A stretch of DNA of 58,298 nucleotides from an uncultured bacterium (GTDB lineage: Bacteria > Patescibacteriota > Minisyncoccia > SW-4-49-11): contig CALMJI010000024.1 of NCBI GenBank assembly GCA_937864235.1, positions 1 to 58,298 on the forward strand, read 5' to 3'. A program made the translations under genes and the position numbers. Within the stretch, counting starts at the first letter, position 1, and each line of letters starts with the position of its first letter. The notes beneath the pieces were generated by a model. It worked only from the letters and a program-made list of their open reading frames with translations. It had not been told where the DNA came from and ran no database searches. Shown piece by piece: positions 1-38,108 of this stretch.

Positions 1-417
1 CCTCTGGGTTATTCTGTCTCCCTTTGGAGGGAGTCCCCGCAGGGGGAGGGTGGATATTAGTATTTTATAATATGACTGCATAAGATTTATAGATTAGACT
101 CTATCCACCCCCGTCTTGCAGACTTCCCCCTCCGAAGGGGGACAAAATGCTTATAGGGCAAGTAAATATAACCTGTCCTCCTCTGGGTTATTCTGTCTCC
201 CTTTGGAGGGAGTCCCCGCAGGGGGAGGGTGGATTGAGTTAAATTCCCCTCTTGAGGGGTGCCGTCGTTTAGACGGTGGGGTGGAGGTGTTTTTGTGTTA
301 TTTATAAATACTTTATTTCCACCCCGTCAGGCAAGCCTGCCACCCCTCAAGAGGGGAATTTTAGGACAAAATACAGGCGACTGAGAGGTCTCACCCTCCT
401 AAAAAAATATAGGAGGG
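1..417. repeat. Cluster of GC-rich palindromic REP/BIME-like repeats
   Basis: Exact 55-bp direct repeat 1-55 = 180-234; inverted unit 102-146; inverted pair 242-287 / 318-360 (aattcccctcttgaggggtg...ggggtgga); second-family unit 372-400; hairpin 394-417. Confidence 0.85.
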
Positions 418-460
418 ACAAAGGCCATATGAGGTTTTATAAAAAGTTTGCTTATATTCA

Positions 461-489
461 TTGACTAGACTTTGACAAAAGAGTATACT
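461..489 (+). promoter_or_regulatory. Sigma70-type promoter for hsdR
   Basis: TTGACT-N17-TATACT. Confidence 0.55.
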
Positions 490-537
490 TTATACATATC
501 TTACTTCTATAATATATAAAAATTTTCTATATAACTT

Positions 538-3201
538 ATGAATGAAGCCGAGACAAGAGCTGAGCTAATTGACCCGCAACTTACATCTCAAGGTTGGGGT
601 ATTGTGGAGGGTTCTCGTGTTTTGCGAGAATATCATATTACGGATGGGAAAATTCAAGCTAATGGAGTACGAGGGGCTCGGCTCAAGGCGGATTATGTTT
701 TGGAGTATAAGGGAGTAAAGTTAGCTATTATTGAGGCTAAAAGTTCAGAATATCCTGTAGGTGAAGGGGTACAACAAGCTAAGGATTATGCTAATAAATT
801 ATCTCTCAAGATGACTTATGCTACTAATGGCCGAGAGATTTATCAGATTGATATTCTCTCAGGTGTGGAGGAATTAGTCTCTAGATATCTTAGTCCTGAT
901 GAATTGTGGAATATAATTTTTGAAGAGCAAAATCTCTGGAGAGATAAGTTCAATAGTATTCCTTTTGAAGATAAGGGTGGTACTTGGCAACCGAGATATT
1001 ATCAGGAAATTGCGGTGAATAGAGTGCTTGAGGCGATTGCAGATAATGATGATAGAATTCTTTTGACTTTGGCTACGGGGACGGGGAAGACGGCTATTGC
1101 TTTTCAGATTGCTTGGAAATTATATCAGACGAGGTGGAATCTGCAGGGGGATGGTGCTCGGCGACCTAGAATTTTATTCTTAGCGGATAGGAATATTTTG
1201 GCTAGTCAGGCTTTTAATGCTTTTTCTGCTTTCCCTGAGGATGCCCTTATACGAATTGACCCCAAGGAAATTCGCAAAAAAGGTGGTGTGCCTAAAAATG
1301 GAAGTATTTTCTTTACTATTTTCCAAACCTTTATGAGCGGGGGTTCGACAAGCTCACCCACCACAATGAATGAAGATAAAAGTGTTATATTTGATGAAAT
1401 AGGAATTAATGATACGGCGAATGGATTTATGTATATTTTACAATGCAGTGATGAAAGTTTTTATACTGGAAGTACTTATAATTTAAGTAAAAGATTACAA
1501 CAGCATAAAAATGGAGAGGGGGCTGAGTATACTAAATTGCATTTACCAGTTAAATTAGTTTACTATGAAACTTTTACAACAATTAATTTAGCATTTGAAA
1601 GAGAAAAGCAAATACAAAAATGGAGTAAAAAAAAGAAAATTGCACTTATTAAAGGTGATATTACTTCATTAAAATCTCTATCAAAAAAAATTGTCCCTGA
1701 GCCTGTCGAAGGGTATTTTGGTGATTATCCTGCGGATTATTTTGATTTTATTATTATTGATGAATGTCATCGTGGTGGAGCTAATGATGAAGGGAATTGG
1801 CGAGCGATTTTGGAATATTTTTCTCCAGCGGTGCAACTTGGATTGACGGCTACTCCAAAGCGAGAGGTGAATGCGGATACTTATCGGTATTTTGGGGAGC
1901 CTGTTTATACTTATTCTCTCAAAGAGGGGATTAATGATGGGTTTTTGACTCCATTTAGGGTGAAGAGAATCCAAACTACTCTTGATGATTATGTGTATAC
2001 TTCTGATGATGAAATTGTAGAGGGTGAAATAGAGGAAGGGAAGAGATATATAGAGGAGGATTTTAATCGAGTTATTGAAATCAAAGCCCGTGAAGAATAT
2101 CGGGTCAGTAAATTTATGGAGCTTATTGATCAGGACCAAAAAACTATTGTATTTTGTGCCAATCAAGAGCATGCGGCTGCTGTCAGAGATTTGATTAATC
2201 AACAAAAAACAAGTACTAATCCTAATTATTGTGTGAGAGTGACGGCTAATGATGGGGTTATAGGAGAGCAATATCTGAAAGATTTTCAAGATAATGAGAA
2301 AACTATCCCGACTATTTTGACTACTTCCCAAAAGCTGTCTACGGGTGTGGATGCTCGTAATATTCGGAATATTGTTTTGATGCGACCGATTAAGTCAATG
2401 ATTGAATTTAAGCAAATTATTGGTAGAGGGACTAGGCTTTTTGATGGAAAAGACTTCTTTACTATTTATGATTTTGTGGATGCTTATCAACTATTCTTGG
2501 ATCCTACTTGGGATGGAGAGCCTATAGAACCTGAAACACCACAATCTCAACCATACCAACCTATTAACACCAGTGATACTCCTAAAATAGGGGAAAATGC
2601 TCAGGAGTCTAAATTGGTAAAGCAGAAAATTAAAATTAAATTGAGAGATGGCAAAGAGAGAGAAATTCAATCTATGGTATCTACTTCATTTTGGGATGCT
2701 AATGGTAGACCAGTTTCTGCGGAAGAATTTATGCATAGCTTATTTGGAGAATTGCCTAAATTATTAGGTACAGAGGAGGAATTAAGAAGTGTTTGGAGTA
2801 GTCCTATTACGCGTAAAAAATTCCTACAAAAGCTTGATGAGGCTGGATTTAGTCGAGATAAATTAAAAACATTACAACAATTAGTGGATGCTGAGAATAG
2901 TGATCTATTTGATGTTTTGGAATATGTCTTTAATGGTGATACCAAACCAATTCCAAGAAGAATCAGGGTGGAGCAATCTAGACAAAATATCTTGGAAGAT
3001 CTAACAGAACCACAAAGACAATTTATTAACTTTGTATTGGATAAATATATACAATCTGGATTTGAAGAATTGGATCAGAGTAAATTACCTATTTTATTAC
3101 AAAATAAATTCCAAACTATAGAAGATGGTCTACAATTATTAGGATCTGAGGATACTATTACAGAGTTATTTGTTGGATTCCAAAAATATTTGTATAAATA
3201 G
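538..3201 (+). CDS. hsdR: Type I restriction enzyme R subunit (EcoEI/EcoAI-like) with in-frame GIY-YIG insertion
   Basis: Nuclease motif ADYVL..IIEAK, PRYYQ, Walker A LATGTGKT, DECH, TATP, QIIGRGTR, EcoEI-like C-terminus; about 124 extra residues between FMSG and YFGDYP. Confidence 0.9.
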   Translation: MNEAETRAELIDPQLTSQGWGIVEGSRVLREYHITDGKIQANGVRGARLKADYVLEYKGVKLAIIEAKSSEYPVGEGVQQAKDYANKLSLKMTYATNGREIYQIDILSGVEELVSRYLSPDELWNIIFEEQNLWRDKFNSIPFEDKGGTWQPRYYQEIAVNRVLEAIADNDDRILLTLATGTGKTAIAFQIAWKLYQTRWNLQGDGARRPRILFLADRNILASQAFNAFSAFPEDALIRIDPKEIRKKGGVPKNGSIFFTIFQTFMSGGSTSSPTTMNEDKSVIFDEIGINDTANGFMYILQCSDESFYTGSTYNLSKRLQQHKNGEGAEYTKLHLPVKLVYYETFTTINLAFEREKQIQKWSKKKKIALIKGDITSLKSLSKKIVPEPVEGYFGDYPADYFDFIIIDECHRGGANDEGNWRAILEYFSPAVQLGLTATPKREVNADTYRYFGEPVYTYSLKEGINDGFLTPFRVKRIQTTLDDYVYTSDDEIVEGEIEEGKRYIEEDFNRVIEIKAREEYRVSKFMELIDQDQKTIVFCANQEHAAAVRDLINQQKTSTNPNYCVRVTANDGVIGEQYLKDFQDNEKTIPTILTTSQKLSTGVDARNIRNIVLMRPIKSMIEFKQIIGRGTRLFDGKDFFTIYDFVDAYQLFLDPTWDGEPIEPETPQSQPYQPINTSDTPKIGENAQESKLVKQKIKIKLRDGKEREIQSMVSTSFWDANGRPVSAEEFMHSLFGELPKLLGTEEELRSVWSSPITRKKFLQKLDEAGFSRDKLKTLQQLVDAENSDLFDVLEYVFNGDTKPIPRRIRVEQSRQNILEDLTEPQRQFINFVLDKYIQSGFEELDQSKLPILLQNKFQTIEDGLQLLGSEDTITELFVGFQKYLYK
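1342..1713 (+). mobile_element. In-frame GIY-YIG endonuclease cassette flanked by inverted REP-like repeats
   Basis: MYILQC..FYTG..NL.KRL.QH..G...T......LVY.E......A..REKQIQ (UPF0213/YhbQ-like GIY-YIG); own ATG at 1366; ttcgacaagctca 1344-1356 vs tgagcctgtcgaa 1698-1710 (12/13 inverted match). Confidence 0.8.
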
Positions 3202-3317
3202 AGATAAATAATATAGAGATCAGCCCTCCCGCTACTTAATTTATCAGTCACACATCAAACTATACATTAAAATCAAAATATGCTATTTTATATGTATATT
3301 AGGATAACTTTTATAAT

Positions 3318-3707
3318 ATGAAAATAGATATCATTACTCAAACTCAAGCTAATACAGATTACCGTAAGGTTATTGCTACGGGGGCGGATAGTCAATTAGT
3401 TTTGATGAATTTGCAACCGGGAGATGATGTGGGGGAGGAAGTTTATGGTGAAGTTGATCAAATTACTGTAGTGGTAGATGGTAGTGGTAGATTAGAAATG
3501 CCGGGAGAAAATGGTCCTATTGAGGTTGGAGATTGTATATTTGCACCAGCCGGAGTGAGGCATAATATTATCAATGACTCAGAGGGAGAGCTAAAATTAT
3601 ATACCATTTATGCTCCTCCAGAGTATGAACCTGGTTCAGTACAAGCAGAGGATGACTCTAATCTGGAAGATGATATAGATGAGGATTTGGATAATTTTGA
3701 TGAATAA
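3318..3707 (+). CDS. Cupin domain protein with acidic tail
   Basis: YRKVIATG..SQLVLM.L.PG..VGEEV..VDQ and PAG.RHNIIN..LKLYTIY.PP pattern of small bacterial cupins. Confidence 0.8.
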   Translation: MKIDIITQTQANTDYRKVIATGADSQLVLMNLQPGDDVGEEVYGEVDQITVVVDGSGRLEMPGENGPIEVGDCIFAPAGVRHNIINDSEGELKLYTIYAPPEYEPGSVQAEDDSNLEDDIDEDLDNFDE

Positions 3708-4725: not shown

Positions 4726-4758
4726 GAAAATAGGGAAAGTCTCACTTTCTCTATTTTC
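4726..4758. terminator. Intrinsic terminator-like hairpin
   Basis: gaaaatagggaaagt-ctc-actttctctattttc, 15-bp stem with G-U pairs. Confidence 0.6.
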
Positions 4759-34378: not shown

Positions 34379-34541
34379 TGTCTCCCTTTGGAGGGAGTCC
34401 CCGTAGGAGGAAGGTGGATTAAACTTTGTAACTTGTATTTTTCTCCTCCTTCGGAGGGGGAATCCTGAAAGTCTGAGAAAGGGGGACAGAAGATAAAAAA
34501 GACAAAAACTGAAATACGGGCGACTGAAAGGTCGCCCCTAC
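34379..34541. repeat. REP-like repeat cluster
   Basis: tgtctccctttggagggagtccccgtaggaggaaggtggatt (near-identical to 15-55), second unit 34441-34488, GTAG-type unit 34515-34541. Confidence 0.8.
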
Positions 34542-37981: not shown

Positions 37982-38108
37982 TGTCCTCCTTTGGAGGAGG
38001 TGGTCACTGTCGTATTTATACGGGAGTGGCCGGAGGTGGTGGATTGAGTTCTAGTTTATGTTTTGTCCACCCTCCCCCTACGGGTACTCCCTCCTAAGGG
38101 AGACAAAA
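37982..38108. repeat. Inverted pair of REP-like repeats
   Basis: tgtcctcctttggaggagg...ggaggtggtggattgag and tccaccctccccctacgggtactccctcctaagggagacaaaa (reverse complement of the family consensus). Confidence 0.8.

Follow-up and report, generated by a model that had tools for sequence, protein, structure and literature searches.

A hairpin-ended GIY-YIG cassette, probably a homing-type mobile element, within the hsdR gene of an uncultured Patescibacteriota bacterium

How can a second nuclease domain lie, in frame and with no visible means of splicing, inside the motor of a restriction enzyme? The question is raised by a contig of 58,298 nucleotides (nt) from an uncultured bacterium of the Patescibacteriota (CALMJI010000024.1, assembly GCA_937864235.1), the whole of which is called the window below. 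Its hsdR gene (538 to 3201, + strand), recognized from the list of open reading frames (ORFs), Pfam, and NCBIfam, encodes an 887-residue restriction subunit of type IB (EcoAI/FtnUII family). Within this gene, a cassette of 372 nt, or 124 codons, at 1342 to 1713 encodes a GIY-YIG nuclease domain between inverted repeats. The cassette has an intact active site and conserved hairpin DNA, is distributed patchily, has recently spread horizontally, and is linked to free-standing homologues. It is probably a mobile element of the homing type, that is, a GIY-YIG gene between inverted hairpin repeats that spreads among hsdR alleles, and the embedded nuclease would be the driver of its mobility.

The cassette and its nuclease domain

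The cassette is flanked by the codons for FMSG and YFGDYP and ends 12 codons ahead of the DECH box. It thus sits between that box and the strand that reads FFTIFQTF, where it occupies a surface loop of RecA-like domain 1 of the type IB HsdR. A sequence-only reading of this DNA had described an in-frame GIY-YIG domain in the HsdR motor with its core Tyr, Arg, His, and Glu positions apparently intact, and the searches bear out both points. The gene, cassette included, is a single uninterrupted ORF, and Pfam places GIY-YIG (PF01541) at residues 296 to 367 (E 1e-16), where it interrupts ResIII. The whole domain, which is Slx1/UPF0213-like, covers residues 296 to 383 (1423 to 1686, + strand) and retains the catalytic Y-Y-R-H-E. 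These five residues are invariant in the alignment of the domain (A3) and intact in 103 of 105 insert-bearing homologues; the other two, P0103 and P0107, have degenerate active sites from which the Arg and/or the His is lost.

Comparisons with solved structures give a consistent placement. A phmmer search returns the UPF0213 proteins BH0048 (1ZG2, E 1e-12) and EF2693 (1YWL, E 2e-10). Foldseek ranks the same two structures first for an AlphaFold model of the insert alone, followed by Slx1 (7CQ3, root mean square deviation 2.0 Å). In that model the core has a predicted local distance difference test (pLDDT) above 90; across models the domain ranges from 79 to 96, and within the full-length model from 79 to 91. 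By sequence and by predicted structure, then, the insert is a member of the Slx1/UPF0213-like branch of the GIY-YIG superfamily. The window contains no second GIY-YIG domain.

The two ends had been described as inverted copies of one motif that are read as linkers, and this too is correct. The arms, TTCGACAAGCTCA at 1344 to 1356 and TGAGCCTGTCGAA at 1698 to 1710, are reverse complements of each other except for one mismatch. As had also been stated, the 13-mer does not recur, at up to one mismatch, elsewhere in the 58-kb window. The description fell short in one respect: the ends are not merely the two halves of a long inverted repeat, for each one is a hairpin in its own right, whose 13-nt loop is conserved. 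The left end (1341 to 1359, + strand), GGG-TTCGACAAGCTCA-CCC, is a minimal hairpin with a 3-bp stem and is read G-STSS-P. The right end (1695 to 1713, + strand), CCC-TGAGCCTGTCGAA-GGG, is the same hairpin inverted and is read P-EPVE-G. Structure prediction, which the sequence-only reading had proposed as a check, yields a confident GIY-YIG domain with low-confidence ends: in the full-length model, residues 267 to 280 and 383 to 392, which the hairpin ends encode, have pLDDT values below 50. This is consistent with the idea that the hairpin-end peptides are flexible linkers joining the domain to two adjacent strands of RecA-like domain 1. The full-length model is of moderate quality (predicted template modelling score 0.42), and it is used here for its pattern of confidence between domain and linkers rather than for the packing of domains.

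The cassette does contain an in-frame ATG (1366 to 1368, + strand), which had been noted as its own start, but this codon is not conserved. Because the Met is limited to the four closest alleles (P0001 to P0004) and no Shine-Dalgarno-like sequence is seen upstream of it, there is no evidence of separate translation. The cassette itself lacks a promoter, a start, a stop, an intron, and an intein. Its G+C content at third codon positions is 12.7%, compared with 24 to 33% for the host gene, so that the cassette is the more AT-rich; this low value is counted in favor of a mobile element.

Homing nucleases are generally expected in inteins or self-splicing introns, and this expectation is all that speaks for such an element here, or for a chimeric assembly, in which case the mature protein or the real genome would lack the insert. 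Several observations make this barely credible. Pfam finds no HINT or intein domain and shows GIY-YIG alone in the insert, and the C-terminal junction, VEG|Y, has neither His-Asn nor a Cys, Ser, or Thr at +1. An Rfam search over positions 1 to 3400 at E ≤ 1 gave sub-threshold noise and no intron. The frame is continuous across both junctions, and each of the 18 complete hsdR cassette loci (18/18) recovered by the genome scan described below, which found them independently of frame, is one continuous ORF. Finally, 12 contigs encode the identical HsdR protein, and diverged alleles with the insert come from six further metagenome or genome assemblies, which disposes of the doubt, raised with the original claim of no intein and no intron, that the reads might have been joined wrongly.

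At the left junction lies a run of five G residues (1339 to 1343, + strand). In the junction alignment it has 6 G in allele L086 and 7 G in L087. In L087 (at about position 4744), the 7 G, compared with 5 to 6 in other alleles, shift the frame exactly where the cassette starts, either through a homopolymer sequencing error or through a slippage-type inactivation of hsdR.

Empty and insert-bearing alleles

The best matches to the HsdR protein are of three kinds: four proteins of 887 residues with the insert (91 to 100% identity), eight of 772 residues without it (88 to 94%), and the more distant insert-bearing clusters described below (61 to 69%). Aligning such homologues, as had been suggested, fixes the boundaries of the insert and reveals empty-site alleles. 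Empty relatives have a loop of 4 to 9 residues at this position, typically xxDGxPxP, in agreement with the short loop that the sequence-only reading had stated; this loop is taken to be ancestral because it is widespread in the HsdR family. In nucleotide sequence, the empty allele L002 shares about 97% identity with the window up to ...TTTATGA and again from TATCCT. Between these points, 44 nt of L002 correspond to 389 nt of the window, and there is no target-site duplication. The empty site in L090 and L002 reads ...TTTATGACGGGT...TACTTTGGAGAT.... Thus, the claim of an in-frame insertion stands insofar as the cassette is stop-free and in frame, but the cassette replaces the ancestral loop and a few flanking codons rather than being cleanly inserted. 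A simple DNA transposon or insertion sequence was rejected on the same grounds, the replacement of 44 nt of the empty allele and the missing duplication. The loop DNA of the empty site was also considered as a decayed hairpin, and the similarity is too weak to make that claim.

The histories of cassette and host gene can be compared at the nucleotide level among six insert-bearing alleles, those of the window, L084, L085, L086 (= L088), L087, and L089. Between these alleles the host gene differs by 10 to 14% (means of 11.1% upstream and 10.4% downstream of the insert), while the insert differs by 0 to 1.3% (mean 0.7%), about 15-fold less. The same disparity holds for synonymous changes, which affect 1 to 2 of the 124 insert codons but about 30% of host codons. 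For the window and L084 it amounts to 2 differences in 372 nt of insert versus 299 in 2292 nt of host gene (Fisher p = 4e-18), and in a plot of variable sites the trough coincides with the insert. Loss of the cassette from some lineages cannot by itself explain this pattern, since an insert that had been shared from ancient times would be as diverged as its host.

Moreover, alleles with and without the cassette are interspersed. The nearest allele to that of the window is the empty L090 (6.0% nucleotide divergence), whereas every insert-bearing allele is at least 10.9% away; for L085 and L089 the nearest allele is the empty L092. The interspersion is also seen at the protein level (P0001 to P0012). 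In the window lineage, sequence of the L090 type resumes within about 6 nt upstream of the cassette and between +21 and +59 nt downstream. Past this tract, the window and L090 are identical for more than 100 nt, in which the other insert-bearing alleles differ. The downstream tract includes host codons, those for YFGDYPA (1714 to 1734, + strand), that travelled with the cassette as a co-conversion tract and contain 4 differences from L090. Thus, one and the same cassette entered several already diverged hsdR backgrounds by way of very short gene-conversion tracts.

Could the cassette be a passive passenger, an old insertion that has been carried about by the ordinary homologous recombination of restriction-modification loci, with nuclease and hairpins uninvolved? 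The hsdR alleles are indeed mosaic, and accessory genes of the operon also differ among strains. Nevertheless, in several host backgrounds that are independent of one another, the tract of low divergence stops at the boundaries of the cassette, give or take a few to about 60 nt, and it is because converted tracts repeatedly share these boundaries that passive recombination becomes the less likely account. In addition, active site and hairpin DNA are conserved across phyla, and the hairpins are concentrated around the nuclease gene. A passive origin of the pattern is therefore quite improbable. As an example of the mosaicism, P0001 and P0005 are 98.9% identical in their N-terminal and 92.9% in their C-terminal parts, so that recombination breakpoints must lie elsewhere in the gene as well.

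Hairpins, relatives, and spread across phyla

The cassette is not confined to close relatives. More than 100 HsdR clusters, at 61 to 69% identity, have a GIY-YIG domain at exactly the position found in the window, and the clusters with the cassette at this site come from at least 7 phyla. The domain is therefore routine in homologues; however, it is always accompanied by the repeats and its occurrence is patchy, contrary to the sequence-only reading's own reservation that homologues might carry it without flanking repeats. Among 105 insert-bearing clusters, the identity of the hosts correlates weakly with that of the inserts (r = 0.40). One such case is that of P0067 and P0088, whose hosts are 94% identical and whose inserts are just 53% identical. 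The selfish repeat-plus-nuclease cassette that had been offered as one interpretation is strongly supported by this weak correlation, by the interspersed alleles, and by the roughly 15-fold lower divergence of the insert. Judged by sequence, the cassette has the traits of a homing element: a single fixed site, a patchy presence among close alleles, and an insert history decoupled from that of the host.

A search of other loci and genomes had likewise been suggested, and a genome scan with the nuclease core alone as query returned 80 loci at 59 to 77% identity. At 24 of these the cassette lies in hsdR at the present site, in six phyla: Bacteroidota, Verrucomicrobiota, Planctomycetota (Scalindua), Nitrospirota, Pseudomonadota (Methylococcales), and Chloroflexota. 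Viral contigs of IMG/VR gave no relatives, and plasmids gave distant YazA-type matches alone (42 to 48% identity). No recent donor of the window cassette was found; its nearest other insert, that of P0121, is just 74% identical in amino acid sequence, and so the source lineage is unsampled.

The remaining loci of the scan are mostly free-standing genes for about 95 to 190 residues, and free-standing homologues of 90 to 130 residues also exist. The same hairpins cluster around free-standing genes, which agrees with the earlier remark that small GIY-YIG genes travel with such palindromes. Near these genes the hairpins have a variable stem of 6 to 9 bp and the conserved 13-mer as loop, with folding energies of -8 to -10 kcal/mol (z -4 to -5); they occur in both orientations, often clustered on both sides of the gene. 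Across the 80 loci, 88 of 113 hairpin units (at most one mismatch) lie within 700 nt of the nuclease core, a zone that makes up 17% of the sequence (p = 6e-45). The hairpin-rich loci match no Rfam family, and the 13-mer is not discussed in the literature searched, where its two matches concern other subjects. At three loci the nuclease ORF continues stop-free through repeat-derived linkers into another, Pfam-confirmed gene: HsdS (L063, 5980 to 7737), adenosine deaminase (L032, 5956 to 7428), and the nucleotidyltransferase RlaP (L067, 5981 to 7153). These are either real fusion proteins or missing stops ahead of independently started genes.

Inside hsdR the stems are shorter, 3 to 5 bp, and their sequence differs from genome to genome yet remains complementary (GGG/CCC, GCC/GGC, GAC/GTC, TGG/CCA, and others). 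This variation of the stems gives rise to alternative junction peptides, GSTSSP or PSTSSG at one end and VPEPVEG, VGELAEP, or VAEPVEA at the other. In the 13-mer, just positions 5 and 8 vary (A/G), and a change at either one alters the encoded residue, while third-codon positions are invariant. Since only the amino-acid-changing positions vary and the third-codon positions are fixed, the constraint is on the nucleic acid and not on the peptide. Together with the covariation of the stems, these sequence patterns support the idea that selection acts on the hairpin DNA.

Hairpins also occur in hsdR without the nuclease. Solo hairpin pairs are present at the cassette site itself in P0258 (MSG-TSTSSVNDTVAEPVEA-YFG), P0259, and P0294. 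Solo units or pairs lie in frame in two more HsdR loops, before WRDKF and before RRPRILF, in at least 8 genomes, where the units are read in several frames (STSS, RQAH, EPVE, ELVE). The solo pairs of P0258 and P0259 and the degenerate nucleases of P0103 and P0107 support the homing reading, as they are the decay products expected of a homing cycle.

The solo hairpins of the two extra loops lie upstream of the nuclease core, at distances of about 300 and 550 nt, in L004, L009, L010, L013, L014, L017, L019, and L050, and at these loci the 13-nt-loop hairpins are dense in hsdR and not in the flanking 10 kb. Next to the nuclease, arm-derived peptides are tandemly expanded in P0109, P0101, P0063, P0104, and P0113, with KVAEPVEA four times, KSVPDLD five times, and SSPTATEA three times as examples; thus, arms expand locally with the frame kept.

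The host system, the nuclease, and known elements

In the host protein, Pfam identifies HSDR_N, the split ResIII/SWI2_SNF2 motor, Helicase_C, and EcoEI_R_C, and the score against NCBIfam NF046051, the EcoAI/FtnUII-family type I R subunit, is 784 bits, with a cut-off of 550. All the HsdR motifs are present: the N-terminal PD-(D/E)xK; GTGKT, DECH, TATP, and QxxGRGTR of the superfamily 2 (SF2) motor; and the EcoEI_R_C tail. The PD-(D/E)xK nuclease motif, D52 ... E66-A-K68 (691 to 741, + strand), is intact, and helicase motif II, D408-E-C-H411 (DECH, 1759 to 1770, + strand), follows 12 codons past the cassette; both are invariant in two alignments (A1, A4). On the parent contig (L001) the gene order is hsdM-ORF6N-hsdS-hsdR, the first three lying immediately upstream, outside the window. 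Because these genes adjoin it, hsdR belongs to a complete type IB system. A CTP synthase encoded on the same contig falls into a cluster, at 90% identity or more, with Candidatus Elulimicrobium humile and a Parcubacteria metagenome-assembled genome, which identifies the organism as a Patescibacterium.

The genes between hsdM and hsdR vary by strain and include those for ORF6N, a KAP NTPase, Fic, SLFN/AlbA_2, and DUF8370/8371 (L001, L002, L084, L085, L086, L091, L092), and the type I system is found in at least 2 chromosomal contexts. Thus, the operon behaves as a variable defence island. The hsdS-hsdR spacer (1 to 537) contains another, GC-rich dispersed repeat, which is distinct from the 13-nt-loop hairpins. 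Exact copies of a 55-nt unit lie at 1 to 55 and 180 to 234, with a partial inverted copy at 93 to 119, and a perfect 21-nt inverted repeat (241 to 261 and 341 to 361) encloses an AT-rich core. The hairpins of the spacer give three weak, sub-threshold matches to Rfam Whalefall-1 (22.7 bits versus 37), and two further, more diverged copies of the spacer-type repeat occur at 34393 to 34419 and 38065 to 38091.

In the homing cycle proposed here, the cassette would be translated within HsdR, its hairpin ends acting as flexible linkers, and HsdR would stay functional. The cassette would spread between hsdR alleles by gene conversion, during which the 9-residue loop of the recipient, with some 20 to 60 nt of adjacent sequence, would be swapped for the donor cassette. 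The nuclease, made as part of HsdR, would trigger conversion by cutting empty alleles or solo hairpin pairs. Alternatively, by analogy with the published Ssn nucleases, the trigger might be the nicking of single-stranded DNA (ssDNA) beside its own hairpins.

A different role for the nuclease would be that of a domesticated second nuclease, useful to the HsdR translocase, for example in cutting single-stranded or hairpin-bearing invading DNA; the insert would then be a beneficial module swept by recombination, with no drive of its own. The complete hsdM-hsdS-hsdR operon, the fusion that is always in frame, the invariant PD-(D/E)xK and helicase motifs of the host, the Y-Y-R-H-E kept in 103 of 105 inserts, and the persistence of the insert in more than 100 HsdR clusters of many phyla would all suit such a role, and Ssn nucleases are known to limit transformation by hairpin-marked DNA (PMC11893778). 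Yet close alleles, at 6% nucleotide divergence, manage without the insert; nearly alike hosts have very different inserts; and this site also harbors nucleases with degenerate active sites and solo hairpin pairs that lack a nuclease. Free-standing homologues, moreover, act as multi-locus, repeat-associated genes, and the authors who first reported such an insertion thought it probably irrelevant to function (PMC1564403). Domestication as the full explanation is therefore unlikely, although a two-nuclease translocase may coexist with mobility.

Several points do weigh against a homing element. Ordinary recombination operates at hsdR, judging from the mosaic sequences of its alleles. This cassette was not found outside hsdR, an exact 29-mer scan of metagenome contigs giving 3 matches, all in hsdR. 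The hairpins of the window, with their 3-bp stems, have folding energies of -1.9 and -2.3 kcal/mol, values that shuffled sequences reach as well. DNA cutting by the cassette nuclease is a prediction from its active-site residues, and the retention of catalytic residues in 98% of inserts would equally fit selection for a function in the host. Ssn-type enzymes recognize their own hairpins and not empty sites, which makes a classical homing specificity hypothetical. Lastly, GIY-YIG enzymes are hydrolytic and are incapable of strand transfer themselves.

A wider proposal can be put forward tentatively. Hairpin-bounded GIY-YIG cassettes might form an unrecognized class of element that needs no intron or intein, as the whole element is translated as a tolerated domain plus linkers. 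In this class an Ssn-like, hairpin-directed nuclease would promote its own conversion, with a preference for type I restriction genes (hsdR, and hsdS in the form of read-through fusions). Such elements may reshape restriction; if so, they might do this through added ssDNA or hairpin cleavage or through phase-variable inactivation at the junctional G run. In any case, the cassette marks a place where an SF2 motor naturally tolerates the insertion of a domain. It would also provide a set of nucleases and hairpins of paired specificity, and it may modify the restriction barriers of uncultivated Patescibacteria and of many further phyla. It is relevant to work on mobile elements, homing nucleases, and restriction systems.

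The closest precedent is that of Dunin-Horkawicz, Feder, and Bujnicki (2006), who noted that in Methylococcus capsulatus the HsdR protein MCA0838 contains an Slx1-like GIY-YIG domain that is missing from a close homologue; they took the insertion to be very recent and perhaps of no functional relevance (PMC1564403). The likeness lies in the Slx1-like domain inside HsdR, and one of the loci found here (L016) is an HsdR of the Methylococcales that carries the cassette where the window has it. MCA0838 was reported as "unique," with the insertion at "position ~800" and no units given; the site described here, at nt 805 of the gene, may be the same. That report did not include flanking hairpins, population evidence of mobility, breadth across phyla, or solo hairpin insertions. 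The literature searched yielded no account of in-frame GIY-YIG homing in hsdR. For the HsdR::GIY-YIG arrangement, the hairpins at the ends, the occurrence in many phyla, and the dynamics resembling those of homing appear to be undescribed.

Chenal et al. (2025) described small, single-domain GIY-YIG nucleases, Ssn, which are flanked by NTS/SRM hairpin repeats and cut ssDNA beside them; the repeats are also dispersed in the genome, and the authors liken the repeat-gene-repeat architecture to a mobile element (PMC11893778). This architecture recurs in the free-standing relatives of the present domain, but the two systems differ in several ways. In the hairpin described here the loop is long (13 nt) and conserved and the stem varies, whereas SRM has a conserved stem and a loop of 3 to 5 nt, and the published SRM pattern, HGTCWY..RNCYNB, has zero matches in the window. 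The nearest solved structures of the present domain are UPF0213 (cd10456) and Slx1; the family of Ssn is cd10448. Finally, Ssn is a stand-alone protein of at most 150 residues, whereas the domain here is embedded in frame in an 887-residue HsdR. The finding joins the HsdR::GIY-YIG oddity of 2006 with the hairpin recognition discovered in 2025, and it supplies natural population evidence for the mobility of a repeat-nuclease-repeat unit, which the authors of the Ssn work could only propose.

Homing nucleases are not known to persist in essential or conserved genes other than inside self-splicing introns or inteins. The cassette achieves a similar survival by being stop-free and translatable, with DNA hairpin ends that double as protein linkers. 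It resembles homing endonuclease genes such as I-TevI (PMC3943268) in its fixed site beside a highly conserved catalytic motif, its patchiness among close alleles, the decoupling of insert and host, the short co-conversion tracts, and the decayed copies. Unlike those genes, however, it has no RNA or protein splicing element, so that the nuclease is predicted to remain in the mature host protein, and it consists of a bare catalytic domain of about 90 residues with no recognizable DNA-binding domain. Its conserved hairpin ends, in contrast to homing endonuclease genes, are transposon-like.

Two further groups of elements share the palindromes. Rickettsia palindromic elements (RPEs; Ogata et al. 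2000) reportedly form in-frame insertions in protein-coding genes. Similarly, the repeats described here are tolerated as in-frame surface-loop peptides, and as solo pairs in three HsdR loops; RPEs, however, carry no gene, whereas the present repeats stand on either side of a nuclease gene and cluster near it instead of being scattered over the genome. In the repetitive extragenic palindromes and bacterial interspersed mosaic elements (REP/BIME) with their REP-associated tyrosine transposases (RAYT), and in IS200/IS605 (PMC11893778), hairpins likewise cluster around a gene for a nuclease presumed to act on the single-stranded form. The enzyme there is an HUH/Y1 transposase, whereas that of the cassette is a GIY-YIG hydrolase, from which no covalent strand transfer is expected.

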